Shown here in pieces: positions 4,591 to 20,552 of a stretch of 48,656 nucleotides of DNA. How positions within the stretch are numbered: the stretch's first letter is position 1; each line of letters begins with the position of its first letter. The DNA comes from a virus (lineage: Duplodnaviria; Heunggongvirae; Uroviricota; Caudoviricetes): the IMG/VR virus record IMGVR_UViG_2534681762_000009, positions 1 to 48,656 of that record; one strand, written 5' to 3'. Under the pieces are notes generated by a model. It had not been told where the DNA came from and did no database searches. It worked only from the letters and a program-made list of their open reading frames with translations. Position numbers and translations under genes: made by a program.

Positions 4591-4849
4591 ATTGATAACA
4601 GAGGGCGTTGCAGCGGGGTTGTCACTTAAGCGTATGGTCAACCTGACAACCCGGTGTCCTCAACGGGGAAGGAATAACCCCGCCATACTTACCGCCGCGC
4701 CATTTTGCGGGTTGCCACAACCGGAAGCGCACGGTCGAATTAAATTTAACGACACCGTACAGTGAGACGAACTTCGCCGTGCGCTTTCGTGTTGTGTGCC
4801 TGCTTTTAACCACGTCAGGCGAGGTGGTATCCTTAAAATCACCACAGTT

Positions 4850-5425: not shown

Positions 5426-5426
5426 A

Positions 5427-5582
5427 TCACTCACCTGAGTTTCTTTCCAGCCAGCGACGGGCACCATTTTCGGTTTTAAACGTTTTGCTTTTGGTATACG
5501 TCATTGCGGTGAACGTACCGTCCTGGTTGGGGAACACGCCACATACCAGAGATTCGCTGTTGCCAAGATTGATAGTATCCAT
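5427..5582 (-). CDS. YdfA-like small protein (51 aa), first gene of early-left operon
   Basis: 51-aa ORF from Met (MDTINLGNSESLVCGVFPNQDG…) with GAGG RBS; immediately downstream of left operator palindromes. Confidence 0.5.
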   Translation of the reverse strand: MDTINLGNSESLVCGVFPNQDGTFTAMTYTKSKTFKTENGARRWLERNSGE

Positions 5583-5767
5583 GCTGACCTCATTTCCCCT
5601 TAACGCCGGGGTAGCGGAACAAAAACCTGCTGCATAGTTATTAAAGTTGTACCCTGCCGTCATGTTCTTACGCCTCGGGCTGGCTACTTAACCCCTGACC
5701 ACTGCCTGGTAACTCGAAGTATTGCCCTGCATTCTGTGGAGCGGGGTGAGTTGGTATGAAAAGAAGG

Positions 5768-5805
5768 ATACCCATAGGTATTTAAAAAGTAAATACCCAT
5801 GGGTA
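5768..5805. promoter_or_regulatory. Left operator region (OL-like): two palindromes ATACCCATAGGTAT and TACCCATGGGTA
   Basis: Perfect 12-bp palindrome TACCCATGGGTA (5793-5804) and near-palindrome ATACCCATAGGTAT (5768-5781), same half-site family as sites between repressor and cro-like genes. Confidence 0.5.
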
Positions 5806-5847
5806 ACTTTTTGCGGTGTCTTAACTGGTGACTAGTTGTTTGGTGAG

Positions 5848-6267
5848 CTATGATGCGTTTTGTGCTTTCTTTTTACGGATTTCTTCGTAGATCATATTGT
5901 AATACTGTTTTTTCTCTTCAAGAGTTTTTAATAAGTTATCCGCTTCACTTTCTGGCAGTTCGTCTAAGAGATCTAAAAAAATACGTTGTCGTGGCGTTAG
6001 AACCCTTGTTTCATAACTGGAGGCTGTGTTCGTTGATGATGAAACGATACCATCCATCCATCCCCGGGGTAACCCAAAGGACTCTTCGATAATCTCCACC
6101 ATATCATCAGCGATCCGTTTTTTTCCCTTTTTCCCCTCTGGGTACAACATTCTTGATACATAAGAAGGCTCGCGCCCGATCTTTCTGGCCACGTTAACCG
6201 CTTTACCATCGCATTTCTCATCACGAATTTTGATGAGTTGCTGTCGTCTAAATTCATATTTGTCCAT
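5848..6267 (-). CDS. Prophage repressor (HTH; DicA/RacR/CI-like)
   Basis: 139-aa ORF with HTH segment (KAVNVARKIGREPSYVSRM), divergent from cro-like gene, flanked on both sides by related palindromic operators. Confidence 0.75.
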   Translation of the reverse strand: MDKYEFRRQQLIKIRDEKCDGKAVNVARKIGREPSYVSRMLYPEGKKGKKRIADDMVEIIEESFGLPRGWMDGIVSSSTNTASSYETRVLTPRQRIFLDLLDELPESEADNLLKTLEEKKQYYNMIYEEIRKKKAQNAS

Positions 6268-6302
6268 AGGTAAATAATAGATGCGATTACTGCAAGGTAA
6301 AC

Positions 6303-6343
6303 AACCTGTGGGTATTGACTTTTGTTTACCTGTAGGTATTCTT
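6303..6343. promoter_or_regulatory. Right operator/promoter region (OR/PR-like): ACCTGTGGGTAT and TACCTGTAGGTA palindromes overlapping TTGACT -35 and TATTCT -10
   Basis: Inverted repeats TACC-N4-GGTA at 6327-6338 and 6304-6315; TTGACT at 6315-6320 with a -10-like hexamer 16-17 bp downstream, ~25 nt upstream of cro-like start. Confidence 0.5.
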
Positions 6344-6367
6344 TGCTGTGTTTACTAAGGAGTAGCT

Positions 6368-6649
6368 ATGGAAGAATTAAGAATATTTCTCAATTCTCTT
6401 TCGTCAGATGAACAGCGTATGTTTGCATGCGAGTGTGGTACCAGCATCGGTTATCTAAGAAAGGCATTGAGTAAAGGTCAAGTGTTAGGGGCATCGTTAT
6501 GTGTCCTTATTGAGCGAGCCAGTAATGGTGAAGTTACACGTCAGCAACTAAGGCCTTTTGATTGGATGAATATTTGGCCCGAGCTGGAAGATACCAAAAC
6601 GTTAACACAACCACTTTCTAGGAGCTTGATTCATGAAAATCAAGCATGA
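6368..6649 (+). CDS. Cro-like/YdaS-like HTH protein
   Basis: 93-aa ORF, AAGGAG RBS, divergent from repressor; HTH-like segment (CGTSIGYLRKALSKGQ); resembles Rac ydaS position. Confidence 0.65.
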   Translation: MEELRIFLNSLSSDEQRMFACECGTSIGYLRKALSKGQVLGASLCVLIERASNGEVTRQQLRPFDWMNIWPELEDTKTLTQPLSRSLIHENQA

Positions 6650-7058
6650 ACACATCCGCATGGCGATGAATGCCTGGGCGCATCCGGACGGTGAAAAAGT
6701 TCCGGCAGCTGAAATAACCAGGGCTTATTTTGAACTGGGTATGACGTTCCCAGAACTGCATGACGACAGCCATCCGGAAGCCCTGGCTCGCAATACCCAG
6801 AAAATTTTCCGCTGGGTAGAGAAAGACACCCCTGATGCAGTTGAAAAAATTCAGGCGTTGTTACCAGCGATCGAAAAGGCAATGCCACCTTTGCTGGTGG
6901 CCAGAATGCGCAGCCACAGTTCAGCTTATTTTCGGGAGCTGGTGGAGACGCGGGAGCGACTGGTGAGAGACGCTGATGATTTTGTCGCAGTGGCAATCGC
7001 CGGTTTCAATCAGATGAACCGTGGTGGCCCGGCAGGAAATGCTGTGGCAGTGCATTGA
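6633..7058 (+). CDS. CII-like/YdaT-like protein
   Basis: 141-aa ORF overlapping the cro-like gene end by 17 nt; position of cII in the lambdoid map. Confidence 0.5.
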   Translation: MKIKHEHIRMAMNAWAHPDGEKVPAAEITRAYFELGMTFPELHDDSHPEALARNTQKIFRWVEKDTPDAVEKIQALLPAIEKAMPPLLVARMRSHSSAYFRELVETRERLVRDADDFVAVAIAGFNQMNRGGPAGNAVAVH

Positions 7059-7123
7059 GTGATAATAGCCATATCGAATCGCTTCCGGCAACTCGTGAGT
7101 AAAAAGATTCGGTATCAGAAGAG

Positions 7124-8200
7124 GTGAGTATGGCTAACGCCTGGCTCAGATTATGGCATGACATGCCAAATGACCCTAAGTGGCGAACAATTGCCAGGGT
7201 GTCAGGGCAGCCAATTGCAACAGTGATGGCAGTGTATATCCACCTCCTGGTGAGCGCGTCACGAAATGTCACGCGAGGTCACATTGATGTCACGACAGAA
7301 GATTTGGCAAGTGCGCTCGACGTGACAGAAGAGGTAATTGATTCAATTTTGCAGACGATGCAGGGGCGGGTACTTGATGGTGATTTAATCACTGGATGGG
7401 AAAAACGCCAGGTGCTTAAAGAGGACAACGGCAATATTTCGCAAACCGCAAAATCTCCTGCAGAGCGCAAGAGGGCGCAGCGAGAGAGGGAAAGAAAGCG
7501 GGAACAAAATGGCGATTGTCACGGCGCATCACGAAATGTCACGCACATGTCACGACGAGTCACGACATATAAAGATACAGATAAAGATACAGATCAAGAA
7601 GATCAAAACACTATGGTCCATGGCGTAAAAAACGCCACGAACCAGGCAGGGGATGTTCAGACCGTCAATCCTGGTCAGCCAGCAGGCACGATACCGGAAG
7701 CCGATTCAGCGTATGCGCTGAAAGCCGATTCGGGCGCTGTGCAGCAGGTGATGACCCAAAGGCCGGAACAATCACACCAACTGCAGCAGCCTGAAGCCGA
7801 TTCCGCCATTCAGCGGGAAGCCGATCGGGTAGTCCCGGAAAACACCGGGCTGTCTGTGGGACGAGTGGATTATCCGGATGTGTTCGAACAGGTCTGGCGG
7901 GAGTACCCGTTGCGTGCCGGAGCAAACCCGAAGAAATCCGCTTTCAGTGCCTGGAAGGCCAGATTACGCGAGGGGGTGCCACCAGAGGCCATGCTGGATG
8001 GCGTGAGGCGTTACGCAAGATACTTGGCGGCTACCGGGAAAACGGGAACGGAATTTGTTCAGCGAGCGACGACGTTTTTTGGACCGGACCGGAATTTTGA
8101 GAACCCCTGGTTGCTCCCGGTAAGCGGCACGAACAACCAGCGTTGTGTGAATCATATTTCTGAACCGGATAACGAAATTCCGCCGGGCTTCAGGGGGTAA
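7124..8200 (+). CDS. Replication initiation protein (O-like), origin iterons embedded in coding sequence
   Basis: 358-aa ORF with AAGAGG RBS; contains two clusters of GTCACG-type iterons followed by an AT-rich tract inside the gene, the lambdoid ori arrangement. Confidence 0.65.
   Translation: MSMANAWLRLWHDMPNDPKWRTIARVSGQPIATVMAVYIHLLVSASRNVTRGHIDVTTEDLASALDVTEEVIDSILQTMQGRVLDGDLITGWEKRQVLKEDNGNISQTAKSPAERKRAQRERERKREQNGDCHGASRNVTHMSRRVTTYKDTDKDTDQEDQNTMVHGVKNATNQAGDVQTVNPGQPAGTIPEADSAYALKADSGAVQQVMTQRPEQSHQLQQPEADSAIQREADRVVPENTGLSVGRVDYPDVFEQVWREYPLRAGANPKKSAFSAWKARLREGVPPEAMLDGVRRYARYLAATGKTGTEFVQRATTFFGPDRNFENPWLLPVSGTNNQRCVNHISEPDNEIPPGFRG
7259..7295. repeat. Iteron cluster 1 (4 x TCACG repeats; includes 16-bp TCACGAAATGTCACGC)
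   Basis: gtcacgaaatgtcacgcgaggtcacattgatgtcacgac; the 16-mer is repeated exactly at 7529-7544. Confidence 0.5.
7518..7610. repeat. Iteron cluster 2 (5 x (G/A)TCACG at ~10-bp spacing) plus AT-rich tract: putative ori
   Basis: gtcacggcgcatcacgaaatgtcacgcacatgtcacgacgagtcacgacat followed by ataaagatacagataaagatacagatcaagaagatcaaaaca. Confidence 0.55.
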
Positions 8201-8240
8201 GTGTTAATTTCTGGTCATGAGGTAATTTTCAGGAGGGCTT

Positions 8241-8663
8241 GTGGCAAAAGTTTTTACACAAGAAGAGCGGGAAAAAATTAAAGGGCAGGTTGTTGAACTC
8301 GTACGCCAGAGTGGGCGCGAGACGTTACGACAACTGGAAACTAAAACTGGGGCAACAAGATATCTGATGAGCGTTCTGGCCAGAGAGCTGGTTGCCAGTG
8401 GCGATGTATACAACTCTGGTTACGGGTTATTCCCGTCTGAACAGGCGCGTAAGGACTGGCAAAATGCCCGTAAAAAGCTCTCAAGGGCAAAGCTGAAGAA
8501 ACCATCTGCGGTTGATCCGGACCTTATCTGGTCATTACCTGACGGAGAAATACGTCGCTACGACAGGCGTCAGAACATAATCTGTCGCGAGTGCCGGAAG
8601 AGCGAAGTTATGCAGCGCATATTGTCGTTTTATCAGGGTAATTTTCAGAAGGTGCTGTTGTGA
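8241..8663 (+). CDS. Hypothetical protein in replication module (position of P/helicase loader but too small)
   Basis: 140-aa ORF, GTG start with GGAGGG RBS, immediately after O-like gene. Confidence 0.5.
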   Translation: MAKVFTQEEREKIKGQVVELVRQSGRETLRQLETKTGATRYLMSVLARELVASGDVYNSGYGLFPSEQARKDWQNARKKLSRAKLKKPSAVDPDLIWSLPDGEIRRYDRRQNIICRECRKSEVMQRILSFYQGNFQKVLL

Positions 8664-8768
8664 GCCAAATTAACAATCGGAACTTCGTGAAGAGAAAGCA
8701 TAATCCAAATCTGAATAATTAAGTTCAGCACTGTAAATAAAATTTAATCCTTAACTGGAGGTATATCT

Positions 8769-8981
8769 ATGTCAAATACACAGAAAATTATTAACACTGA
8801 AAAATATAACGAGTGGGTGAAAAAATTCTCTGAACAGATTTTTAAAATTACTGGCGACGAGAATGTGGCAAAAAATGAATTAGAACCGTGGACACCTGAA
8901 GGAAACGCACCAAATTATTGCTGGTGGGAAGTTGATCCGGTTGATGCTGCAAATGAAGCCATGAGTTACCACAACGATTAA
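8769..8981 (+). CDS. Small hypothetical protein (nin-like region)
   Basis: 70-aa ORF with GGAGG RBS; followed by a GAAA-tetraloop hairpin (8992-9007). Confidence 0.55.
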   Translation: MSNTQKIINTEKYNEWVKKFSEQIFKITGDENVAKNELEPWTPEGNAPNYCWWEVDPVDAANEAMSYHND

Positions 8982-9013
8982 TGTCGGGAGGCCGCCCGAA
9001 AGGGCGGTAAGAA

Positions 9014-9232
9014 ATGACTACATTATTCAGAAAAGAATATCCGCAAAAAAGTAGAGCGACAGAATTTTTGTTTCTCATTCTGTTTATCGTATTGATGATA
9101 CCGATATCCCCTCTAATTTTTGTCTGGGCAATCGGGAAAATAATTGAGCCAGTTACTGAATTGTATACCGACGTTGTATGGGCGTCGTTCAACACACTGC
9201 ACAATAAAATTAATCCGTATAAGGAAAACTGA
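9014..9232 (+). CDS. Small predicted membrane protein
   Basis: 72-aa ORF with one long hydrophobic segment (FLFLILFIVLMIPISPLIFVWAIG). Confidence 0.4.
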   Translation: MTTLFRKEYPQKSRATEFLFLILFIVLMIPISPLIFVWAIGKIIEPVTELYTDVVWASFNTLHNKINPYKEN

Positions 9233-9233
9233 T

Positions 9234-9497
9234 ATGGCAACTTTGACAAAAAAAGAACGGGCATGGTTGAACGAATTACAGGAAGTTCTTGATCGCTGTC
9301 CATCACCGAAAAAAATTGGCTTTTACACCATTGGCGATAAAAGCATTTACCTGTATGACCTACGCCGCATGGATGAAATCATGGAGGCTCTTGATAATCG
9401 TTCGTCGATGGATTGGTGTGTTGCTGTTCATGATATGAATGCAGGGTTTGATGAAAAGATTTTGTTCCCCTCATCAGTTGAAAGCACTGCGGGTTAA
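9234..9497 (+). CDS. Small hypothetical protein
   Basis: 88-aa ORF from ATG with AAGGA RBS (MATLTKKERAWLNEL…). Confidence 0.5.
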   Translation: MATLTKKERAWLNELQEVLDRCPSPKKIGFYTIGDKSIYLYDLRRMDEIMEALDNRSSMDWCVAVHDMNAGFDEKILFPSSVESTAG

Positions 9498-9507
9498 GGA
9501 GTAACAC

Positions 9508-9675
9508 ATGACCACTATTACCAAAGAACGTATTGAATTGTTCATTAAAAACCCGCTTGAAAACGGGCTTACCCGTGGTGAACAAATGGAACTGGCACGG
9601 ATTGCGCTGGCATCGCTGGAAGCAGAGCCGGTTGTGTTCTGGTTTGAAAAATATCAAGAAGGGGCTACGGCATGA
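9508..9675 (+). CDS. Small hypothetical protein (55 aa), paralogous N-terminus to the next gene
   Basis: Not in supplied ORF track (<60 aa); AAGGAG RBS; [12 protein letters not shown]… ; stop overlaps next start (ATGA). Confidence 0.45.
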
Positions 9676-10016
9676 CGACTTTTACCAGAGAGCAGTTAAT
9701 AGCTCACGCAGAGGAGACTATTGAAGCACAGAGACTGTGCATACCGGGCACAATCGACCATGACATCATCCGCACATATAAGATGGATATTGCTGTTCTG
9801 GAAATCGCACTGGTATCGCTGGCAGCAGAGCCAGCCGGTAAATTGCATGAATACAAACCAGTGGGATATCAGCGTCTGGTCGATGAGTTAACCATGCTGG
9901 TAAAGCAGTTAACCTGGCAACTGAGGAAAGCGAAGCCAGACTGCAAATTACCGGATAAGGCGATGAGTTATCTGGAGCGGAACGGACTGATAAGCGTGGA
10001 GGATATTTTACGATGA
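9672..10016 (+). CDS. Small hypothetical protein (114 aa)
   Basis: [15 protein letters not shown]… shares N-terminal pattern and IAL(A/V)SL(E/A)AEP segment with preceding ORF; ATGA-coupled to neighbours. Confidence 0.55.
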
Positions 10017-10096
10017 CCTGGCCTGAAGCATTAACAACGGTAGGAATTGCGATGGCGGTGGCGCTGGTGGTGTATTCGATTTGCCGCTGGGGATAA
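10013..10096 (+). CDS. Possible 27-aa membrane micro-protein
   Basis: [27 protein letters not shown]; ATGA-coupled to upstream gene; speculative. Confidence 0.3.
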
Positions 10097-10307
10097 AAAC
10101 GGTTTGCGGGAAAAGGAGAGTTAAGTAGAATTGCAGCGGGTGCTTGAGGCTATCTGTCTCAGGCATGAACACCAAAAGGCAGATAGAGAAAAGCCCCAGT
10201 TAACATTACGCGTCCGGCAAGACGCTTAACATTAATCTGAGGCCATATCTATGCTCTACACACGTAGGTTAGCCTCTTACGTGCCGAAAGGCAAGGAGAA
10301 GCAGGCT

Positions 10308-10463
10308 ATGAAGCAGCAAAAGGCGATGCTAATCGCCCTGATCGTCATCTGTTTAACCGTCATTGTGACGGCACTGGTAACGAGGAAAGACCTCTGCGAG
10401 GTACGAATCCGAACCGGCCAGACGGAGGTCGCTGTCTTCACAGCTTACGAACCTGAGGAGTAA
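10308..10463 (+). CDS. hok: Hok/Gef family type I toxin (small membrane toxin)
   Basis: MKQQKAMLIALIVICLTVIVTALVTRKDLCEVRIRTGQTEVAVFTAYEPEE: canonical Hok family sequence (TM helix + conserved C-terminal CEV/R…EVAAF-like motif); in-frame upstream extension from 10251 resembles a mok-like leader ORF. Confidence 0.8.
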   Translation: MKQQKAMLIALIVICLTVIVTALVTRKDLCEVRIRTGQTEVAVFTAYEPEE

Positions 10464-10532
10464 GAGACCTGGCGGGGGAGAAATCCCTCGCCACCTCTGA
10501 TGTGTCAGGCATCCTCAACGCACCCGCACTTA

Positions 10533-10560
10533 ACCCGCTTCGGCGGGTTTTGTTCTTTTT
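10533..10560 (+). terminator. Rho-independent terminator (copy 1 of AACCCGCTTCGGCGGGTTTTGTT)
   Basis: CCCGC-TTCG-GCGGG stem-loop followed by TTTTGTTCTTTTT. Confidence 0.6.
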
Positions 10561-10707
10561 GTGAAAAAAATTCCCTTAAAGGAGATTTTTTTAACTAAAA
10601 AGGTTTACTTTGCTTTCGTATATGGTAAATTTTAGGAATTAGAATTTAAGCGCCCATCAGGCTTGCGTTAGGCAAGTCTGCTAAATCAACAAATTGAGGA
10701 TAAAATC

Positions 10708-11067
10708 ATGGCACTCACTGAATTCGGTAAGGCCGTTAGAAAAGCGAGGATCGATACTGACAGTACTCTTCTGACTATGTCTCAAGAACTGGGCACTACG
10801 CCAGCGTTTCTTAGCGGTTTAGAAACTGGTAGCAAAAAAATACCTCTGAAGTGGGTTAAGAAGATTGATTCTTACTTCAAGGCCAAAGGTGTAGAAATTG
10901 AAGGGTTACAGGAGTTAGCGGCAGTTGCGAATGACTCAGTTCCAGTAAACGGTTTGTCTCAGCAACAGAAAATGCTTGTAGCGGGATTCGCTAAGTCGCA
11001 GTTTACGCCGGAACAGCTAAAGAGTTTTGCAGATTTATTGCAAAAGATTAATAACAATGAGGGGTAA
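10708..11067 (+). CDS. XRE-family HTH transcriptional regulator
   Basis: 119-aa ORF, GAGGA RBS; N-terminal HTH (LTMSQELGTTPAFLSGLETG); directly upstream of and nearly abutting a metallopeptidase gene. Confidence 0.8.
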   Translation: MALTEFGKAVRKARIDTDSTLLTMSQELGTTPAFLSGLETGSKKIPLKWVKKIDSYFKAKGVEIEGLQELAAVANDSVPVNGLSQQQKMLVAGFAKSQFTPEQLKSFADLLQKINNNEG

Positions 11068-11069
11068 TT

Positions 11070-11546
11070 ATGTATCAAATGAGAGGTAACAGGGTGTCAC
11101 CGATGCAAGAAGAAGAAATAGCCTACAGAGCTATAAACTTCTGTAATGCTATTGGTCTTACAGCCTCAAAGCGCAAAAGAAAGCGTTATGATATGTTCTT
11201 TGAAAGCCTGTCAATTTATGGGGTTACTCTTGACGTCAGGACCGACAAAGAGTGGGAGGCTCTGACGTATGATCTAACTATCGGACATTGTGACCCCGCT
11301 TCTCTAACAATTACGGTTCCCAATAAAATATATGTGAATGCTTGCCTTGGGGAAGAGCATGCACTTGCTGTTATCTTCCACGAGCTAGGTCATTTGCTTC
11401 TTGGACACAAAGCAGTTTTACACTTTTCAGTTAAAGAACCTACTCGTATTGAGGATGCAGAATGGCAGGCAGATACATTTGCGGATATCGTACTGGAAAC
11501 AATTGGCGTGAGAACACAACAGATGTCGTTCGATTTTTATATGTAA
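11070..11546 (+). CDS. ImmA/IrrE-family (COG2856-like) zinc metallopeptidase
   Basis: 158-aa ORF with HEXXH motif (IFHELGHLLLGH); 2-nt gap from XRE gene; GAGGGG RBS. Confidence 0.8.
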   Translation: MYQMRGNRVSPMQEEEIAYRAINFCNAIGLTASKRKRKRYDMFFESLSIYGVTLDVRTDKEWEALTYDLTIGHCDPASLTITVPNKIYVNACLGEEHALAVIFHELGHLLLGHKAVLHFSVKEPTRIEDAEWQADTFADIVLETIGVRTQQMSFDFYM

Positions 11547-11571
11547 AAGCCCTGCGCTAACAGGGCTTTTA
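11546..11571 (+). terminator. Rho-independent terminator
   Basis: AAAGCCCTG-cgctaa-CAGGGCTTTT immediately after the peptidase stop. Confidence 0.6.
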
Positions 11572-11713
11572 GGGACGGAAAGTGCGCTAACACATTCCGT
11601 AGTGTATGGAGATAATCCAATCACAACACTTTTTGTAGACAAGCGAAGTGTAGTGGTTCTCCCAACAAAGTGCAACCTGTGTGGATTCACAGGTGAGCAG
11701 GGAAAACGAAATC

Positions 11714-11863
11714 ATGGCAATGGGTACCTGTCGCAAATGTGGCTGTCCATGTGAGATCATTTTTCGCTACTCTGTGTGTGTAGATGGTGTAATGCGCCAC
11801 GCGAAAAAAGGGAAGCCTTTCCCGATCCCACTTTGCAGTTGTAGTGGCAAGCACGCAGCTTGA
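11714..11863 (+). CDS. Small cysteine-rich protein (49 aa; zinc-ribbon-like)
   Basis: MAMGTCRKCGCPCEIIFRYSVCVDGVMRHAKKGKPFPIPLCSCSGKHAA; 8 Cys in 49 aa; weak RBS. Confidence 0.4.
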   Translation: MAMGTCRKCGCPCEIIFRYSVCVDGVMRHAKKGKPFPIPLCSCSGKHAA

Positions 11864-11879
11864 TATTCAGTACTGACAA

Positions 11880-11908
11880 AACCCGCTTCGGCGGGTTTTG
11901 TTTTTTCT
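11880..11908 (+). terminator. Rho-independent terminator (copy 2 of AACCCGCTTCGGCGGGTTTTGTT)
   Basis: Same 23-bp stem-loop as at 10533, followed by TTTTTTC. Confidence 0.6.
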
Positions 11909-11978
11909 TGGCATTCAGGTTTACAATTCGCACGTCAGCCTGAACAACTGGCACCTGCTGCGCCAGCAGAGAAAGACG

Positions 11979-12257
11979 ATGGCGCACAATACCAAATCAC
12001 ACAATTCTGATAATTCAGCTGTCTTTGCCAGCAGGCACGGGCGGCGTTCCCGCACATTCAAATCTGATTGGTACCAGCATCCCCCATGTACTGAAGAACA
12101 AGCTGAATGGCTAATTCAGTGCTACCGCAGACACGGATACGAGATTAAGAAAGCCCTCAGCCTCGATTATCGTCACTGGATAATCTCCGTCAGGCTTCCT
12201 TACTCTGAACGCCCACCGCGTCCGTCCCGCACATTCCAGCAACGCATCTGGAGGTAA
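11979..12257 (+). CDS. Hypothetical protein (Rem-like position)
   Basis: 92-aa ORF from ATG (MAHNTKSHN…); stop abuts next gene start. Confidence 0.45.
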   Translation: MAHNTKSHNSDNSAVFASRHGRRSRTFKSDWYQHPPCTEEQAEWLIQCYRRHGYEIKKALSLDYRHWIISVRLPYSERPPRPSRTFQQRIWR

Positions 12258-12258
12258 C

Positions 12259-13305
12259 GTGCGGGTATTACTTCGACCTGTTCTGGTACCGGAACTCGGG
12301 CTGGTGATCGTTAAGCCGGGCCGTGAATCCATGCCGGTATTCCACAATACCCGGGTACTGGTGGAGCCGGAACCGAAAAGCATGCGTAATCTGTCGTCCG
12401 GGGTCGTTCCTGCCGTTCGCCAGCCGCTGGCGGAGGATAAATCATTACTGCCATTTTTCAGCGACGAACGAGTGATTCGTGCTGCTGGTGGCGCTGGCGC
12501 ATTGTCTGACTGGTTACTGCGCCATGTTAAATCCTGCCAGTGGCCACACGGCGATTATCACCACAGTGAAACCGTCATTCACCGTTATGGTACCGGCGCA
12601 ATGGTGTTGTGCTGGCACTGCGACAACCAGCTGCGCGACCAGACCTCCGAATCACTCGGGCAACTTGCTCACCAAAACCTGTCTGCATGGATGATTGACG
12701 TCATACGCCATGCAATGAATGGCTCGCAGGAACGGGAATTATCGCTGGCTGAATTATCCTGGTGGGCGGTCCGCAATCAGGTGGCGGACGCGCTACCGGA
12801 AGCGGTATTACGTCGTTCGCTGGGGTTGCGTGCGGAAAAAATCCGCTCAATGTACCGTGAAAGCGACATCGTACCGGGAGAGCAGACCGCCACCAGCATA
12901 CTGAAGCAGCGCACAAAAAATCTTGCGCCGCTGCCTCACGCCCACCAGCAAAACCCGCCACAGGAAGAGACGGTGGTCAGCATTGCCGTTGATCCTGAGT
13001 CTCCGGAATCTTTCATGAAACGACCTAAACGTCGCCGCTGGGTTAACGAGAAATACACACGCTGGGTGAAGACACAGCCGTGTGCGTGTTGTGGTAAGCC
13101 AGCCGACGATCCCCATCACCTGATTGGTCATGGTCAGGGCGGAATGGGGACAAAATCTCACGATATTTTCACGCTACCGCTGTGTCGGGAGCATCACAAC
13201 GAGCTTCATGCGGATCCTCTGGCGTTCGAAGAAAAGCATGGTTCTCAGGTTGATTTAATTTTTCGTTTTCTTGATCACGCCTTTGCAACTGGCGTGCTTG
13301 GGTAA
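12259..13305 (+). CDS. DUF968/YdfU-like protein with C-terminal HNH-like Cys/His motif
   Basis: 348-aa ORF, GTG start with GGAGG RBS; C-terminus CACCGKPADDPHHLIGHGQGGMGTKSHDIFTLPLCREHHNELH resembles HNH/zinc-binding nuclease motifs. Confidence 0.6.
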   Translation: MRVLLRPVLVPELGLVIVKPGRESMPVFHNTRVLVEPEPKSMRNLSSGVVPAVRQPLAEDKSLLPFFSDERVIRAAGGAGALSDWLLRHVKSCQWPHGDYHHSETVIHRYGTGAMVLCWHCDNQLRDQTSESLGQLAHQNLSAWMIDVIRHAMNGSQERELSLAELSWWAVRNQVADALPEAVLRRSLGLRAEKIRSMYRESDIVPGEQTATSILKQRTKNLAPLPHAHQQNPPQEETVVSIAVDPESPESFMKRPKRRRWVNEKYTRWVKTQPCACCGKPADDPHHLIGHGQGGMGTKSHDIFTLPLCREHHNELHADPLAFEEKHGSQVDLIFRFLDHAFATGVLG

Positions 13306-13317
13306 AAGAGGTGACTG

Positions 13318-13692
13318 ATGCTCATAGATTTGGTTTTACCTTACCCGCCGACGGTGAACACTTACTGGCGACGCCGTGGCAGCACATATTTTATCTCGGA
13401 GGAGGGAAAGCGTTATCGCCGGGCTGTGGCGCTTATTGTTCGCCAGCAGCGGCTGAAATTAAGCCTGTCCGGAAGGCTGGCGATAAAGGTGATTGCAGAG
13501 CCACCGGATAAGCGTCGTCGCGACCTGGACAATATTCTGAAAGCACCACTGGATGCGCTGACGCATGCCGGACTTCTCATAGACGACGAGCAGTTTGATG
13601 AAATCAATATTGTGCGCGGTCAGCGCGTTCCTGGGGGGCGGCTGGGCGTGAAGATTTACCCCATAATGCTTGAAGGGCAGGTCAAAAAATGA
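13318..13692 (+). CDS. rusA: RusA-family Holliday junction resolvase
   Basis: 124-aa ORF MLIDLVLPYPPTVNTYW…RRRDLDNILKAPLDALTHAGLLIDDEQ: canonical RusA motifs (PPSVN-like, D-x-DN catalytic acidic residues); AAGAGG RBS. Confidence 0.8.
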   Translation: MLIDLVLPYPPTVNTYWRRRGSTYFISEEGKRYRRAVALIVRQQRLKLSLSGRLAIKVIAEPPDKRRRDLDNILKAPLDALTHAGLLIDDEQFDEINIVRGQRVPGGRLGVKIYPIMLEGQVKK

Positions 13693-14510
13693 AACTGGAA
13701 GATTTACCGAAATACTACTCCCCAAAATCCCCCGGCCTGACTGATGCATCGGCCTCAACGTCGAAAGATGCGCTGAGTATCACTGATGTGATGGCCGCGC
13801 AGGGCATGACACAGAATCGGGCTGAGATGGGGTTTTCTGCGTTCCTTGGGAAAATGGGCATTAGTATGAATGACAGAGAGCGGGCAACAGAATTGCTGAC
13901 AGAATATGCACTCAGTCGGTGTGATCGCGTGGCGGCGTTAAGAAAACTCCCGGCAGAAATAAAACCGGCAGTGATGCGTATTATGGCTTCGTATGCGTTT
14001 GAAGATTATGCCCGCAGCGCGGCGAGCAAAAAACAGTGCTCCTGCTGTCACGGAAAAAAATTTATTGAAAGCGAGGTTTTTACAAACAAGATCCAGTATC
14101 CGGATGGTAAGCCGCCGGTATGGGCAAAGTGTACGAAAGGTGTGTATCCGTCTTACTGGGAAGAATGGAAAAAAGTCAGGGAGGTGGTAAAAGTTGCCTG
14201 TCCGGAGTGTGGCGGAAAGGGTGAGGTTTCCACCGCCTGTAAGGATTGCCGTGGGCGTGGTGTCGCCATTCATCGTGAAGAGTCGGTAAAACGTGGTATG
14301 CCTGTTATCAGAGACTGCCAGCGTTGTGGTGGTCGTGGCTGTGAAAGACTACCATCAACGGAGGCATTTAATGCCATATGCAAAGTGACGAGTGCTATCA
14401 CGCTTGATACGTGGAAAAAATCAGTGAAACGCTTTTACGATACGTTGGTGGTTCGGTTTGACATTGAAGAGGCATGGGCGGAGCGGCAGTTAAAGAGGGT
14501 AACGCGATAG
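13689..14510 (+). CDS. Late-gene antiterminator Q-like protein with CxxC-x-G-x-G zinc-finger repeats
   Basis: 273-aa ORF in the Q position (after rusA, before a short terminated transcript and the lysis/structural genes); repeated CxxCxGxG motifs (CPECGGKGE…CKDCRGRGV…CQRCGGRGC). Confidence 0.55.
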   Translation: MKLEDLPKYYSPKSPGLTDASASTSKDALSITDVMAAQGMTQNRAEMGFSAFLGKMGISMNDRERATELLTEYALSRCDRVAALRKLPAEIKPAVMRIMASYAFEDYARSAASKKQCSCCHGKKFIESEVFTNKIQYPDGKPPVWAKCTKGVYPSYWEEWKKVREVVKVACPECGGKGEVSTACKDCRGRGVAIHREESVKRGMPVIRDCQRCGGRGCERLPSTEAFNAICKVTSAITLDTWKKSVKRFYDTLVVRFDIEEAWAERQLKRVTR

Positions 14511-14591
14511 TGTTGTTGATTTTTCCCGAATCTGTGGTAAATTTGCTCTAACGATGGGCGTTTTATGCCTGACGTTAGAAGATTTTTTACA

Positions 14592-14615
14592 CCCCGCCGC
14601 CTGGCGGGTTTTTTA
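14592..14615 (+). terminator. Rho-independent terminator downstream of Q (tR'-like)
   Basis: CCCGCC-gcct-GGCGGG followed by TTTTTTAT, ~80 nt after Q stop. Confidence 0.5.
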
Positions 14616-14736
14616 TGACTGAAATCGCGTCAGTATAGTAAACGCGCTGGTGGCGGTGAATACCTGTCTTTCAGCTTGCTGGCTTTTTCGACAAGAGTTA
14701 TTGGTGTGTCACGTTAACCGGAAAAGGGAAAAAGAC

Positions 14737-14934
14737 ATGCTAAAACAGCAGGATATGACAGAAACCGCCAGAGTGGTGTTTAATGAATTAAGCGTTACCG
14801 AACCGGCGACAGTCGGGGAGATAGCGCAGAATACTTACCTTTCACGCGAACGCTGCCAGTTAATACTGACCCAGCTGGTTATGGCGGATCTGGCAGACTA
14901 TCAGTTCGGTTGTTACAGACGCCTTCCGCAGTGA
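14737..14934 (+). CDS. Small hypothetical protein (possible winged-helix)
   Basis: 65-aa ORF from ATG (MLKQQDMTETARVVFNELSV…) with GGGAAAAAG RBS-like; stop lies within a terminator hairpin. Confidence 0.4.
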   Translation: MLKQQDMTETARVVFNELSVTEPATVGEIAQNTYLSRERCQLILTQLVMADLADYQFGCYRRLPQ

Positions 14935-14948
14935 AGGCTTTTTTATTT
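14921..14948 (+). terminator. Rho-independent terminator
   Basis: GCCTTC-cgcagt-GAAGGC followed by TTTTTTATTT. Confidence 0.5.
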
Positions 14949-15084
14949 GTGGTAAATGGGCGGCTGGTGGGTGTTAGGGGCACCCACCAGCCATCTGCTC
15001 ATGCGTTGGGTTCACAAGCAAACCTCAGGCCCACTGCTTTGCGCAAAAGCAGAATGAGCCTATCAGAGACAGGCTTAATGATCC

Positions 15085-16134
15085 ATGCTTAATACTGTAA
15101 AAATATCCAGTTGTGAGTTAATCAACGCCGACTGCCTGGAATTTATCCGGTCGTTACCCGAAAATTCTGTTGACCTGATAGTCACGGACCCGCCGTACTT
15201 TAAAGTGAAGCCTGAGGGCTGGGATAACCAGTGGAAGGGCGACGATGATTACCTGAAGTGGCTGGACCAGTGTCTGGCGCAGTTCTGGCGGGTGCTGAAA
15301 CCTGCCGGAAGTCTTTACCTGTTCTGTGGTCATCGCCTGGCATCTGATATCGAAATCATGATGCGTGAACGCTTCAGTGTGCTGAACCATATTATCTGGG
15401 CGAAGCCGTCCGGACGCTGGAACGGATGCAACAAGGAAAGCCTGCGGGCGTATTTCCCCGCCACAGAGCGCATTCTGTTCGCGGAACATTATCAGGGGCC
15501 GTATCGTCCGAAAGATGCCGGGTATGCGGCGAAGGGCAGTGCACTGAAACAGCATGTGATGGCCCCGCTGATTTCTTACTTTCGTGATGCGCGCGCGGCC
15601 CTGGGGATAACGGCAAAACAGATTGCAGATGCCACAGGAAAGAAAAACATGGTGTCGCACTGGTTCAGTGCCAGTCAGTGGCAGCTACCGAACGAAAGCG
15701 ATTATCTGAAATTACAGTCGCTGTTTGCCCGGGTGGCAGAAGAGAAACATCAGCGCGGTGAACTGGAAAAGCCCCACCACCAGCTGGTGGATACGTATAC
15801 GTCACTGAACCGGCAGTATGTGGAGCTGCAGAGTGAATATAAGCATCTGCGGCGGTATTTTGGTGTGACGGCGCAGGTGCCGTACACGGATGTGTGGACA
15901 CATAAACCGGTGCAGTTCTATCCCGGGAAACATCCGTGCGAAAAACCGGCAGAAATGCTGCAGCAGATAATCAGCGCAAGCAGTCGTCCGGGTGACCTGG
16001 TTGCAGATTTTTTTATGGGCTCAGGTTCAACGGTAAAAGCGGCACTGGCGCTCGGGCGTCGTGCGATTGGCGTTGAGCTGGAGACCGGACGTTTTGAGCA
16101 GACAGTCAGGGAAGTTCAGGATTTAATCGTTTGA
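15085..16134 (+). CDS. Orphan DNA methyltransferase (N6-adenine/N4-cytosine class, DPPY motif)
   Basis: 349-aa ORF with catalytic DPPY (VTDPPYF) and C-terminal SAM-binding (FFMGSGST) motifs; no adjacent restriction endonuclease gene. Confidence 0.8.
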   Translation: MLNTVKISSCELINADCLEFIRSLPENSVDLIVTDPPYFKVKPEGWDNQWKGDDDYLKWLDQCLAQFWRVLKPAGSLYLFCGHRLASDIEIMMRERFSVLNHIIWAKPSGRWNGCNKESLRAYFPATERILFAEHYQGPYRPKDAGYAAKGSALKQHVMAPLISYFRDARAALGITAKQIADATGKKNMVSHWFSASQWQLPNESDYLKLQSLFARVAEEKHQRGELEKPHHQLVDTYTSLNRQYVELQSEYKHLRRYFGVTAQVPYTDVWTHKPVQFYPGKHPCEKPAEMLQQIISASSRPGDLVADFFMGSGSTVKAALALGRRAIGVELETGRFEQTVREVQDLIV

Positions 16135-16183
16135 AATGGATGAGATTGCAGAATTAATTACGCACCATTATTATTCTGCTCCC

Positions 16184-16259
16184 GGCCCTTTAGCTCAGTG
16201 GTGAGAGCGAGCGACTCATAATCGCCAGGTCGCTGGTTCAAATCCAGCAAGGGCCACCA
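16184..16259 (+). tRNA. tRNA with CAU anticodon (Ile2/lysidine-type, ileZ-like; could also be read as Met)
   Basis: Folded by hand: acceptor GGCCCTT/AAGGGCC, D-arm GCTC…GAGC, anticodon loop CTCATAA, T-arm GGTCGCTGGTTCAAATCCAGC, 3' ACCA; close to E. coli ileX-type sequence. Confidence 0.8.
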
Positions 16260-16268
16260 TATCACATA

Positions 16269-16345
16269 CCACCATTAGCTCATCGGGATAGAGCGCCAGC
16301 CTTCGAAGCTGGTTGCGCGGGGTTCGAGTTCTCGATGGCGGTCCA
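16269..16345 (+). tRNA. tRNA-Arg (anticodon UCG)
   Basis: Folded by hand: acceptor CCACCAT/ATGGCGG (one A-C mismatch), D-arm GCTC…GAGC, anticodon stem CCAGC/GCTGG with loop CTTCGAA, T-loop TTCGAGT, 3' TCCA. Confidence 0.7.
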
Positions 16346-16359
16346 TTTATCGGTATTCT

Positions 16360-16405
16360 GCGTTGTTAGCTCAGCCGGACAGAGCAATTGCCTTCTAAGC
16401 AGCTG
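16360..16405 (+). pseudogene. Truncated tRNA-Arg(UCU)-like remnant (5' half only)
   Basis: GCGTTGT-TA-GCTCAGCCGGACAGAGC-A-ATTGC-CTTCTAA-GCAGC matches tRNA 5' half and anticodon arm, but no canonical T-arm or complementary acceptor 3' strand downstream. Confidence 0.35.
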
Positions 16406-16769
16406 TGGTTGCACTCCTGTTGTTTCTGGTGGTGATGGTGGACTTCAGCAGCCGGATAATGTCGGTGCTGTCTGATGGTGTTTTGGTGGCGGGTGTGTGG
16501 TTGTTGCTTTCCCGTTGCTGAAAAAGAAAGCATCAGGCGATTAGCAGGGTATCAGTTACACGTTGAAATTTTTAAATACCTCACAATTCCACAGCTTGAT
16601 GATTGTCTGGCTGCCGGAGAATTTGTTAAAAATTACATCGCATGGTGAATCCCCCTGTGCGGAGGGGTAATCAGCGAGTAGGTATATGGGATAATCGCGG
16701 ATTCAGGTGCTGGTACTGAATTCACCGGGAGGCACCCGGCACCATGCAATGGCACATAGCGCCACTCTC

Positions 16770-16800
16770 CAGCCCCTCTCCGGAGGGGCTGTTTATATTG
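16770..16800 (+). terminator. Rho-independent terminator
   Basis: CAGCCCCTC-tccg-GAGGGGCTG followed by TTTATATTGATTTTG. Confidence 0.5.
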
Positions 16801-16825
16801 ATTTTGTCAGATGTGAGTAAACTCC

Positions 16826-17161
16826 TTATGGACTTTGTTGTTTTAGCCCATAAGGACATATTTGCAGAGTGCAACGGTTATTAAAGCATTCATTCAATAC
16901 GTTATCTGTATTTGTAGGGCATTCCTGGCTGTTTTTGATTAAATTCCAGAATGTTTTATTGAATGGTACTACGTTGTAAATGGTTACAGGTAGCACTTTG
17001 TTATTGAGCATGATGCCTGTGTGAGTCAGTGTAAATATACTTTCAGGAGGTAAGAAAGCATCCGATTGATACCAGATTATTAATTTTATTTTACTCCATA
17101 TGACTGAAAAAGATATTCCGCATGATGGCTGGATAACTGTATCAATCACAATCCACTTCAT
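16826..17161 (-). CDS. AT-rich hypothetical protein at the stx-equivalent locus (antisense to flanking genes)
   Basis: 111-aa ORF with AAGGAAA RBS 5 nt upstream of ATG; strongly AT-rich relative to flanks; C-terminal Cys cluster ([23 protein letters not shown]); no recognisable family from sequence alone. Confidence 0.45.
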
Positions 17162-17421
17162 TTAGTTTCCTTGTTTATGCCTTGCTGGTGATGTTCTGAA
17201 AAGTATAAATGATATTTTTGATTGTAAACCATAGAGCAGAATTATTTTTCTGATGTTGTTTATTGTTTATTTAAATGCAGGGTGGTTTATATCTCGTCTT
17301 GTAGTTTATCCATGCATATCTGCTTGATGATGAGGTTTTTATTTAAGGTATGGTTTTGTGTTTTTTCTGTATTACATGTCAGGTATTTTAAAGAATCATT
17401 TTTCAGATGGTGGAAAGAACC

Positions 17422-19278
17422 ATGGCATTTAAACACTATGATGTTGTCAGGGCGGCGTCGCCGTCAGATCTTGCGGAAAAGCTGACACATAAACTGAAAG
17501 AGGGCTGGCAGCCGTTTGGTAGTCCGGTGGCCATAACCCCTTATACCCTGATGCAGGCGATTGCAGCAGAAGGTGATGTGGTCGTCAGTGGTGCAACTGA
17601 GCCGGAGTGGTACTACGTCATCGTACTGGCCGGGCAATCCAATGCCATGGCTTACGGTGAAGGGCTTCCGCTTCCGGATTCATACGATGCGCCCCATCCG
17701 CGCATTAAGCAACTGGCCCGTCGTAACACAGTGACTCCCGGTGGTGAAGTATGCGTATTTAACGACATCATTCCTGCTGACCATTGTCTGCATGATGTTC
17801 AGGATATGAGTACGATTAATCATCCCCGGGCTGACCTGAGCAAAGGGCAGTACGGCTGTGTCGGACAGGGCTTACATATTGCCAAAAAACTGCTTCCGTA
17901 TATCCCTAATAACGCGGGGATCCTGCTGGTACCATGCTGTCGTGGTGGTTCGGCATTCACCCAGGGCACGGAGGGGACATTCAGCGAGTCCACGGGGGCC
18001 AGTCAGGATTCGGCTCGCTGGGGAGTGGGTAAGCCGTTATATCAGGATCTGCTTTTCCGCACGAAGGCAGCATTGCAGAAAAATCCGAAAAACGTTTTGC
18101 TGGCGATATGCTGGATGCAGGGGGAATTCGATATGACGAATGCCAGTTACGCCCAGCAGCCAGCAGCATTTCTTGCAATGGTACAGCAGTTCCGTGCTGA
18201 CCTTGCCGGGCTGGCGGCGCAGTGTCACGGTGGAAGTCCGGCATCAGTCCCCTGGATTTGTGGCGACACGACATACGCGTGGAAACAAGAACACGGTACG
18301 CAATATGAAGTGGTATATGGTGCATATAAAGGTAAAGAATCCCAGCAGATTTATTTTGTTCCCTTTATGACCGATGGTAGCGGAGTTAATACACCGACAA
18401 ACAACCCGTCAGAAGATCCTGATATTGCCGGGTCTGGTTATTACGGTTCGGCATCCCGAACGAACAAAAACTGGGTATCATCAAATCGCCCGACGCATTT
18501 CAGCTCATGGGCGCGTCGTGGCATTATTCCCGATCGTATGGCAACTGCTATTCTGAACGTAGCCGGTCGCACCTTAGCCTTCATTAGTGGTAAGGCACCG
18601 GAAATCAAACCCTCGCCCGGCGGCGACACTCCATCGGGGCCGTCTGATGGTGACACATCCGTTCGTACAGTCTCCCTGCTGCCGACAGCCGGAGAGGCTG
18701 CTGCGCAGGGCTGGACCATCACCGGCGGCAGTGTTGCGCTGGAAGATGGTGTGTTTAAGGTTACCAAGCAGAGCAATAAAACTTGGTCCCTGATGCATCC
18801 GGTGGATGACGCAGTCTCCCTGCTGACACGGGGTGGCAGACTGAGCTGTAAGTTTCGACTGTCAGGCGCACTGACCAACAACCAGTTCGGTCTGGGAATT
18901 TATCTGTATACCGATGTAGCGTTACCTGACGTCGTGGCGATGACCGGGACTGGTAACCCGTTCCTGATGTCGTTCTTCACCCAGACCACAGACGGCAAAC
19001 TGAATCTGATGCATCACAGGAAAGCAGGAAACACAAAGTTGGGCGAGTTCGGGAATTACAGTAACGACTGGCAGACGCTGGAGCTGGTGTTCACCGCCGG
19101 CAGTGCCACGGTTACTCCGAAACTGAATGGAGTGGCTGGCCCGGCATTCCAGGTCATAAAAGACAGTCTGACACTGGGGCTGAATGCGCTGACGCTGACG
19201 GATATTACCAAAAATGCAGCGTATGGCGTTGAGATAGAAAGTCTGGTGCTGGAGATAAATGCACCAGCATCATCATAA
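17422..19278 (+). CDS. NanS-p-like prophage esterase (DUF1737 + sialate O-acetylesterase-like domain)
   Basis: 618-aa ORF; N-terminal MAFKHYDVVRAASPSDLAEKL… and large conserved protein at the position occupied by nanS-p downstream of stx in Stx phages; assignment from recollection, not searched. Confidence 0.65.
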   Translation: MAFKHYDVVRAASPSDLAEKLTHKLKEGWQPFGSPVAITPYTLMQAIAAEGDVVVSGATEPEWYYVIVLAGQSNAMAYGEGLPLPDSYDAPHPRIKQLARRNTVTPGGEVCVFNDIIPADHCLHDVQDMSTINHPRADLSKGQYGCVGQGLHIAKKLLPYIPNNAGILLVPCCRGGSAFTQGTEGTFSESTGASQDSARWGVGKPLYQDLLFRTKAALQKNPKNVLLAICWMQGEFDMTNASYAQQPAAFLAMVQQFRADLAGLAAQCHGGSPASVPWICGDTTYAWKQEHGTQYEVVYGAYKGKESQQIYFVPFMTDGSGVNTPTNNPSEDPDIAGSGYYGSASRTNKNWVSSNRPTHFSSWARRGIIPDRMATAILNVAGRTLAFISGKAPEIKPSPGGDTPSGPSDGDTSVRTVSLLPTAGEAAAQGWTITGGSVALEDGVFKVTKQSNKTWSLMHPVDDAVSLLTRGGRLSCKFRLSGALTNNQFGLGIYLYTDVALPDVVAMTGTGNPFLMSFFTQTTDGKLNLMHHRKAGNTKLGEFGNYSNDWQTLELVFTAGSATVTPKLNGVAGPAFQVIKDSLTLGLNALTLTDITKNAAYGVEIESLVLEINAPASS

Positions 19279-19428
19279 AAAGTGAGCCAGTCAAATGGAA
19301 GGTATCGTTAAACTCACCGGTAGTGTCAGTGGGTCGTCTGAGATGCCTGCATGAGTTATCAGAGCCATCAGTACTTAACTGGTGGCTTTTTTTATTGTTG
19401 TCAGCTTCCGGATAACGGGAGACGGGGT

Positions 19429-19644
19429 ATGTACCAGATGGAAAAAATCACAACAGGTGTGTCATACACCACGTCAGCGGTGGGAACGGGCTACTGGTTC
19501 CTGCAGTTGCTGGACAGGGTTTCCCCGTCTCAGTGGGCGGCAATAGGCGTGCTGGGGAGTCTGCTGTTTGGGCTGCTGACATATCTGACTAACCTGTATT
19601 TCAAAATCAGAGAGGACCGTCGTAAGGCTGCACGGGGAGAGTAA
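19429..19644 (+). CDS. S: Holin (class with dual-start MYQM motif)
   Basis: 71-aa ORF from MYQM with GGAGA RBS; two TM segments and charged C-terminus ([13 protein letters not shown]); immediately upstream of lysis genes. Confidence 0.75.
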
Positions 19645-19648
19645 TTCA

Positions 19649-19963
19649 ATGACTCAAAACTATGAACTGATTGTGAAAGGGATCCGCAATTTTGAGAATA
19701 AAGTTACGGTAACTTTAGCGTTACGGGACAAAAAACGCTTTGACGGTGAAATTTTTGACCTGGACATCTCGCTGGACCGTGTTGAAGGTGCCGCGCTGGA
19801 GTTTTATGAGGCAGCAGCCAGAAGGAGCATCAGACAGGTCTTCATGGATGTTGCTGCCGGGTTATGTGAAGGGGACGAGCTGTTGCCAGAAACGCGCCCC
19901 TGTTCAGAGGCGCGGTATACCATAAAAATTAACAGTTCTGATAACTCGATTACGGGTTGTTAG
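19649..19963 (+). CDS. Hypothetical protein within lysis cassette
   Basis: 104-aa ORF between holin and endolysin. Confidence 0.55.
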   Translation: MTQNYELIVKGIRNFENKVTVTLALRDKKRFDGEIFDLDISLDRVEGAALEFYEAAARRSIRQVFMDVAAGLCEGDELLPETRPCSEARYTIKINSSDNSITGC

Positions 19964-20018
19964 CTTTTTGCAGTTGGCTTTCCAGTATCTTTCATTGGTA
20001 GCATCCTGATAAATATCC

Positions 20019-20552
20019 ATGAGCGCAAAAATCAAATACGGCCTGTCAGCTGCTGTTCTGGCGCTGATTGCTGCAGGCGCGTCTGCTCCTCAAATACTTG
20101 ACCAGTTTCTGGATGAAAAAGAGGGTAACCACACTACGGCATACCGCGATGGTTCCGGTATATGGACCATCTGTCGTGGTGCCACAATGGTGGATGGTAA
20201 GCCCGTCATACCGGGAATGAAGCTGTCGAAGGAAAAATGCGACCAGGTTAACGCTATTGAACGTGATAAGGCGCTGGCATGGGTGGAGCGCAATATTAAA
20301 GTACCACTGACCGAACCACAGAAAGCGGGTATAGCGTCATTCTGTCCCTATAACATTGGCCCCGGTAAGTGTTTCCCGTCGACGTTTTATAAGCGGCTGA
20401 ATGCCGGTGATCGTAAGGGCGCATGCGAGGCGATTCGCTGGTGGATAAAAGATGGTGGGCGCGATTGCCGCATACGTTCAAATAACTGCTATGGACAGGT
20501 TATTCGTCGTGACCAGGAAAGCGCATTAGCCTGTTGGGGGATAGATCAGTGA
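20019..20552 (+). CDS. R: Endolysin (lysozyme, glycoside hydrolase 24-like, SAR-type N-terminal signal-anchor)
   Basis: 177-aa ORF; hydrophobic N-terminus ([15 protein letters not shown]) followed by lysozyme catalytic E…D…T triad region ([23 protein letters not shown]). Confidence 0.85.

Follow-up and report, generated by a model that had tools for sequence, protein, structure and literature searches.

The IMG/VR virus record IMGVR_UViG_2534681762_000009 (Caudoviricetes) was analyzed over its full length of 48,656 nucleotides (nt), hereafter the window, with a focus on the DNA methyltransferase gene at positions 15085 to 16134. By sequence comparison, this gene encodes an allele of M.EcoGI, and its product is very probably an orphan prophage adenine methyltransferase that forms N6-methyladenine (m6A) in essentially any context and that likely acts as a late anti-restriction enzyme dependent on the antitermination protein Q. 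The first-pass annotation had described a methyltransferase of 349 amino acids (aa) with a DPPY motif and a C-terminal FxGSGST motif, a description borne out by the open reading frame (ORF), both motifs and the Pfam match given below. Its statement that the target specificity is unknown had to be abandoned, since 348 of the 349 residues are shared with M.EcoGI and 334 of 349 with its sister enzyme M.EcoGII, both reported to methylate adenine in any context (PMC5778455, PMC4659465, PMC6602927).

The identification is anchored on the two methyltransferase copies of Escherichia coli O104:H4 strain C227-11. Copy 1 (WP_000935536.1; NZ_CP011331.1, 2234080-2235129) is identical to the window gene at 1046 of 1050 nucleotides, and the proteins differ only at residue 74, which is alanine here and valine in M.EcoGI; M.EcoGII, too, has alanine at this position (A74). 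Copy 2 (WP_000935520.1; NZ_CP011331.1, 1474103-1475152), located using the IMG/VR relative L202 as query, is 95.7% identical to the window protein and agrees with M.EcoGII as given in the PMC11551740 supplement, save for a few positions resembling optical character recognition (OCR) errors; this machine-read reference, which contains such errors, was checked against the C227-11 genome. The two copies differ from each other at 16 positions, and the resulting 333/349 identity matches exactly the figure published for M.EcoGI and M.EcoGII as two copies within one strain (PMC5778455), so that copy 1 was taken to be M.EcoGI.

Each residue of the window protein occurs in one or the other of these enzymes. 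The 15 substitutions relative to M.EcoGII are concentrated in the middle of the protein, with none in residues 1-134, 11 in 135-259 and 4 in 260-349; M.EcoGI has the same residues as the window protein in this variable region and is also reported to be non-specific. As judged from raw difference counts, purifying selection seems to act on the gene: compared with M.EcoGII, 51 nucleotides differ but only 15 amino acids. A further relative, M.EcoMV of strain EC958 (EC958_1545, ST131 prophage Phi4), is reported to be 99% identical to M.EcoGI and was judged inactive by reverse-transcription PCR (RT-PCR; PMC4659465). It was cross-checked here not on the EC958 sequence itself but via the copy of strain JJ1886, of the same ST131 lineage, which matches the window protein at 347 of 349 residues, with substitutions L2A and D346G.

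Genomic context supports the same assignment. M.EcoGI has the length of the window protein and lies in the same gene order, namely DUF968, RusA, Q, a 65-aa ORF, the methyltransferase, tRNA genes, DUF3927, IraM, SASA esterase and holin. The M.EcoGI locus of C227-11 contains three tRNA genes, as do Shiga toxin (Stx) phages, whereas the window prophage contains two. M.EcoGII (GenBank EGT69837.1 according to PMC11551740) likewise agrees with the window protein in length, in the DPPY and FMGSGST motifs and in its late-operon slot before tRNA genes. Its prophage differs in the Q gene, and the small upstream ORF there is diverged (~50%) and of the mEp460 type. M.EcoGII, a commercial enzyme, was itself not found in the phage collection, where tblastn returned identities of at most 94%. 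Full-text searching of the literature with the peptide gave no match.

The properties expected of the window enzyme come from published work on these two proteins. Murray et al. described M.EcoGII as a 349-aa beta-class enzyme of a C227-11 prophage with DPPY, a central target-recognition domain (TRD) and FxGxG, and noted a very similar enzyme in phage 1720a-02 (PMC5778455). In vitro, M.EcoGII methylates up to ~99% of the adenines in duplex DNA and also accepts single-stranded DNA, RNA and DNA:RNA hybrids; when it is expressed, DNA methylation in vivo is extensive (PMC5778455). Among the cloned C227-11 methyltransferases analyzed by single-molecule real-time (SMRT) sequencing, two were non-specific for all adenines (PMC5778455), and PMC4659465 and PMC6602927 describe M.EcoGI as non-specific and without a methylation signature in its native strain. 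[quoted passage not shown] Strains over-expressing M.EcoGII grow slowly, a growth effect reported for M.EcoGII only, and the authors propose that induction turns such enzymes on so that host restriction is overcome (PMC5778455, PMC12707154).

The architecture of the window protein fits this family. The principal features of the gene are the following:

15085..16134, plus strand: methyltransferase coding sequence (CDS) of 349 aa and a stop codon, an allele of M.EcoGI; N6-adenine methyltransferase of the beta class (ORF, Pfam, RefSeq).
15187..15198, plus strand: catalytic motif IV DPPY, residues 35-38 (regular expression on the translation; aligned part).
15487..15861, plus strand: central insert, residues ~135-259, probable charged linker and helical target-recognition domain (non-alignment, published M.EcoGII model).
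16012..16032, plus strand: S-adenosylmethionine (SAM)-binding motif I FMGSGST, residues 310-316 (regular expression on the translation; aligned part).

The ORF is intact, with an ATG start and 349 codons, and DNA identical to it is annotated with the same boundaries in RefSeq strain DA33133 as a 'DNA-methyltransferase' CDS (WP_000935516.1). The Pfam family N6_N4_Mtase (PF01555) covers residues 29-340 with E=2.3e-44 and 152.4 bits against a 26.7-bit cut-off, a match far beyond chance. The motif order, DPPY followed by FxGxG, places the protein in the beta class. Two separate alignments to solved beta-class methyltransferases (chains 9c3u and 8urk, M.RsrI and CcrM) were obtained at E=1e-15 to 1e-26, one for the N-terminal part with DPPY (query residues 8-114 or 15-141) and one for the C-terminal part with FMGSGST (281/282-330/333); with 9c3u and 8urk, they span residues 8-114 and 281/282-333. 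The middle, residues ~115-141 to 280, does not align to solved beta-class enzymes, which leaves an insert of ~140-165 residues, in agreement with the roughly 150 aa estimated earlier.

The suggestion that this insert carries the target-recognition domain is likewise supported by the published AlphaFold (AF2) model of M.EcoGII, in which the Rossmann domain comprises residues 1-134 and 260-349, and a four-helix-bundle helix-turn-helix (HTH) target-recognition domain occupies residues 160-237, accompanied by a charged linker (PMC11551740). In the window protein, residues 167-195 resembled Pfam HTH_3 weakly and under the cut-off (E=0.031), and a single-sequence AlphaFold2 prediction rendered residues 150-259 helical, but with a pLDDT (predicted local distance difference test) averaging only 43.5. 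By analogy with the family, the N-terminal and C-terminal parts would assemble into one Rossmann-fold catalytic domain, while the positively charged central helical HTH domain and the linker would bind nucleic acid without base reading. The enzyme is probably dimeric, as gel filtration indicated for M.EcoGII (PMC11551740).

Several other family assignments were considered and rejected. A Dam-type alpha-class GATC methyltransferase would show the reverse motif order, and PF02086 (D12 class) is absent from the Pfam matches. An N4-cytosine methyltransferase within PF01555 was discarded given the DPPY motif IV and the fact that the nearest characterized relatives make N6-methyladenine; N4-cytosine members of PF01555 usually have SPP[YF] at this motif, not DPPY. 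The ATGCAT-specific YhdJ (NCBIfam NF008572 / PRK11524) matched in two partial stretches with 112.8 bits against a 292-bit cut-off. More generally, the site-specific beta-class enzymes (YhdJ/PRK11524, M.RsrI, CcrM, the 8urk and 9c3u chains and M.PflMI) share fold and motif order with the window protein, but they read a defined site, their central region is unalignable with it, and all NCBIfam scores lie far under the family cut-offs. M.PflMI lacks a charged linker that enzymes of the M.EcoGII type have in addition (PMC11551740). In PHROGs, two half-length 'DNA methyltransferase' families, phrog_6025 and phrog_6952, match residues 1-204 and 171-349, respectively, at E~1e-104; such families might arise if, in some deposited phage genomes, a frameshift or a sequencing error has broken the gene into two ORFs.

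The gene is widespread. Relatives were detected in 1,978 of 5,426 complete E. coli genomes, with at least 99% identity in 598 records and a full-length gene in ~1,917 complete genomes, and the window gene is 100% identical at the DNA level to annotated 'DNA-methyltransferase' genes of many E. coli chromosomes. At 90% identity, its protein cluster comprises 5,932 members. Many Stx-converting phages of the phage collection, as well as phage 1720a-02 and phiP27, have the gene at this position.

The surroundings of the gene were then compared with those of related prophages. The following features were mapped on either side of it:

12259-13305, plus strand: DUF968 gene (Pfam).
13318-13692: RusA gene (Pfam).
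13689..14510, plus strand: Q-type antitermination protein gene, 273 aa (PF03589, E=1e-49; RefSeq 'antitermination protein').
14516..14543, plus strand: candidate late promoter, TTGATT, 16 nt, TGgTAAATT (by eye).
14593..14615, plus strand: terminator-like GC hairpin (14593-14608) with T-run just after Q, tR'-like (terminator scan).
14737..14934, plus strand: 65-aa ORF, PHROG 331, function unknown (RefSeq CDS in DA33133, C227-11 and JJ1886; phrog_331, E=1e-36).
14921..14946, plus strand: terminator-like hairpin (14921-14938) with T-run at the end of the small ORF (terminator scan).
14935..15084, plus strand: conserved 150-nt leader, or 5' untranslated region, predicted to be structured (conservation, RNA fold).
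14962..14992, plus strand: perfect 12-bp hairpin or inverted repeat in the leader (sequence reading, predicted pairing).
16184-16259 and 16269-16345, plus strand: two tRNA genes, with CAT anticodon and then Arg-TCG (ARAGORN, Rfam tRNA model, RefSeq).
16826-17161, minus strand: IraM anti-adapter homologue (RefSeq name).

The placement between Q and the tRNA cluster, as originally annotated, is evident from these coordinates, and the enzyme's orphan status was also upheld. Among the eight flanking ORFs at 12259-19275, a Pfam scan found no restriction endonuclease family: it matched DUF968, RusA, Q and the SASA esterase, and the remaining four ORFs, all small, had no match, one of them being named IraM in RefSeq. 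Since no endonuclease gene is adjacent and the Pfam-matched neighbors are ordinary lambdoid families, the locus does not qualify as a Type II restriction-modification system. For the DUF968 protein, the similarity to HNH nucleases was weak and under the cut-off (HNHc_6, E=1e-4). As partner nucleases, DUF968 and RusA were nevertheless rejected, as we take both to be standard lambdoid early-region (nin) genes; moreover, a partner nuclease is unlikely because a non-specific methyltransferase leaves no defined site to cut.

The order Q, small ORF, methyltransferase, tRNAs, SASA esterase and holin is common to both C227-11 loci and to Stx2a phages, including EH1910. Stx phages have the methyltransferase gene flanked by Q and the tRNA/stx genes; SfV, mEp460 and phiNP have it between Q and the holin gene, without tRNAs. 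Phage 933W differs in having a NinG/Rap endonuclease gene before Q and a slot without a beta-class methyltransferase. The window holds an already known enzyme at its usual place, in a lambdoid prophage without stx genes at this position: the interval between the tRNAs and iraM that contains stxAB in EH1910 is toxin-free here (16346-17406); its sole contents are a mini-ORF of DUF3927 that DA33133 has annotated in its identical locus, the small RNA STnc100 and the IraM homologue. The latter is encoded on the minus strand and is followed by the SASA/NanS-type esterase gene. Situated between the tRNAs and the IraM-like gene, STnc100 (16610-16800, plus strand) matched its Rfam family RF02076 strongly and over the full length, scoring 132 bits where 47 bits is the gathering score; its end is a terminator-like hairpin at 16770-16791. 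For the tRNA gene with a CAT anticodon, ARAGORN gives Met and RefSeq gives tRNA-Ile, as for ileZ of 933W; it is presumably a lysidine-modified tRNA-Ile2.

The candidate late promoter is kept in an Stx2a phage with the same Q gene, and the annotations of 933W and SfV place a late promoter and/or terminators at the analogous position. The hairpin after Q is retained, with changes in the loop and in some stem bases, in phages with a different Q gene, and the second hairpin (14921..14946) has two stem pairs in which both bases differ between phages. The 65-aa ORF ends ~150 nt before the methyltransferase and lies upstream of the leader in 109 of 116 IMG/VR loci; in six listed exceptions, the leader and the methyltransferase are present without it. 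Winged-helix matches of its product to TrmB, MarR_2 and HTH_24 are all below cut-off (E=0.003-0.02), and a profile search against solved structures gave chance-level matches alone (E at least 0.095). Some records name this ORF 'TrmB family transcriptional regulator'. The 65-aa protein may regulate the methyltransferase.

The leader retains long invariant blocks across phages of E. coli, Shigella (SfV), Citrobacter (phiNP) and Klebsiella, while the small ORF drops to ~50% identity. A 22-mer of the leader is followed by the methyltransferase start 131-133 nt downstream in 94 of 98 IMG/VR loci. The predicted RNA fold has an energy of -74.3 kcal/mol (z=-4.33 against shuffled controls) and includes a stem in which GGUCAC pairs with UGAUC just before the start codon; covariation support for the fold is thin, as most pairs are invariant. 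The 5' arm of the perfect hairpin contains a Chi site, GCTGGTGG, at 14963-14970, and this arm is invariant in independently retrieved phages. No Rfam family covers the leader, and a sub-threshold hit to P26 on its opposite strand (E=0.048) was dismissed as noise. We consider it doubtful, although conceivable, that the 65-aa ORF, the terminator and the leader form an undescribed control device that confines a toxic, non-specific methyltransferase to the late lytic phase by acting on its translation or transcription, or else that the Chi sites, invariant and correctly oriented, shield rolling-circle phage DNA from RecBCD. The purpose of such a device may resemble that of the controller proteins of restriction-modification systems or of com/mom in phage Mu.

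From its position after Q and before the holin or tRNA/stx genes, the methyltransferase appears to be the first gene of any size on a late transcript controlled by Q. Its late-operon place would explain silence in the lysogen and expression only after induction, and the terminator-like hairpins between Q and the gene are consistent with such silence. Judging from position and literature, the gene would remain silent in the lysogen and be transcribed only once Q antiterminates after induction; replicating phage DNA could then be blanket-methylated before packaging, and the progeny shielded from restriction systems with adenine-containing sites. We infer Q-dependent late expression and an anti-restriction role for the gene of this prophage on these grounds. 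The slow growth caused by M.EcoGII over-expression implies that tight control is needed. Phage Mu Mom and low-specificity enzymes of the alpha-class M.HaeV type offer a parallel, being broad phage-borne modification functions that stay off in lysogens, are toxic if mis-expressed and are believed to counter many restriction systems at once; they are analogues and not relatives, given the unrelated chemistry of Mom and the reverse motif order of the alpha class. With regard to the two functions originally suggested for the orphan enzyme, protection of phage DNA from host restriction is the one favored by the literature, whereas altered host gene expression is without support in published data, as no methylation signature was seen in the C227-11 lysogen and M.EcoMV was judged inactive by RT-PCR.

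Several points weigh against this interpretation. The non-specific activity of the present allele, with A74 in an M.EcoGI background, is read across from M.EcoGI and M.EcoGII, and the original M.EcoGI data are cited via later papers. The candidate late promoter scores 8/12, under the scan threshold of 9/12. The in vivo role is still a proposal in the M.EcoGII paper (PMC5778455), and the literature searched contains no report of methylated induced virion DNA, of Q-dependent transcription or of a restriction-evasion phenotype. A phage rich in m6A could also become a target of methyl-adenine-dependent (type IV) nucleases, which would make the net benefit host-dependent.

Three other explanations were weighed against the non-specific late anti-restriction enzyme. 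It is highly improbable that the protein is a sequence-specific orphan methyltransferase with a yet-unknown site, possibly one that regulates host genes epigenetically in the lysogen. The sizeable central TRD-like insert with its HTH would suit such a function, close structural relatives such as M.PflMI are site-specific (PMC11551740), NCBI calls some members of the protein cluster 'site-specific DNA-methyltransferase', and M.EcoGIII, another prophage methyltransferase, does alter host expression (PMC6602927). However, the 99.7% and 95.7% identities link the protein to two enzymes reported as non-specific, and the C227-11, EC958 and O111 methylomes give no attributable motif, the EC958 allele having been judged inactive by RT-PCR. 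The main in vivo substrate is very unlikely to be RNA, whether late phage transcripts or the tRNAs encoded downstream. M.EcoGII does methylate RNA, single-stranded DNA and DNA:RNA hybrids in vitro, and phage tRNA genes consistently follow the gene in Stx-type prophages; yet the holin gene directly follows it in SfV, mEp460 and phiNP, where no tRNAs intervene, and expression of the enzyme leads to extensive DNA methylation in vivo. In addition, the SUPREM paper claims a greatly improved RNA methylation efficiency through engineering, a gain that implies a modest native activity on RNA.

There is also little chance that the gene is an irrelevant passenger, never expressed and kept by hitch-hiking in a cryptic prophage, as might be supposed from its reported silence during laboratory growth of several strains, from the description of the M.EcoGII prophage as cryptic by Murray et al. 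(PMC5778455), and from the half-length PHROG families, which may mean that the gene is split in some phages. This explanation is at odds with the full-length gene in ~1,917 complete genomes and in the functional phages SfV, mEp460, phiP27 and Stx phages, with the excess of nucleotide over amino-acid differences from M.EcoGII, with the strong conservation of the 5' leader, and with a conserved place at the start of the late operon that phages with different Q genes have in common.

The distribution of Chi sites was recorded separately. The window contains 15 of them (GCTGGTGG) against 1.9 expected from shuffles, all within 1394-20444 and 11 on the plus strand, so that they are confined to the early/regulatory/lysis half of the prophage and the structural-gene half has none. 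Against the usual E. coli Chi density, the local excess would be only few-fold. If cos lies at the assumed position, the plus-strand orientation is the one believed to be recognized by RecBCD entering from the cos/lysis side. One opposed overlapping pair, CCACCAGCTGGTGG, occurs at 15777-15790, inside the methyltransferase linker codons HHQLV.

For annotation, the gene should be labeled as an M.EcoGI/M.EcoGII-type non-specific adenine methyltransferase and not as 'site-specific, specificity unknown'. About one third of complete E. coli genomes hold a latent enzyme of this type, able to methylate every adenine, which bears on phage host range, on restriction barriers and on the interpretation of methylomes after prophage induction.

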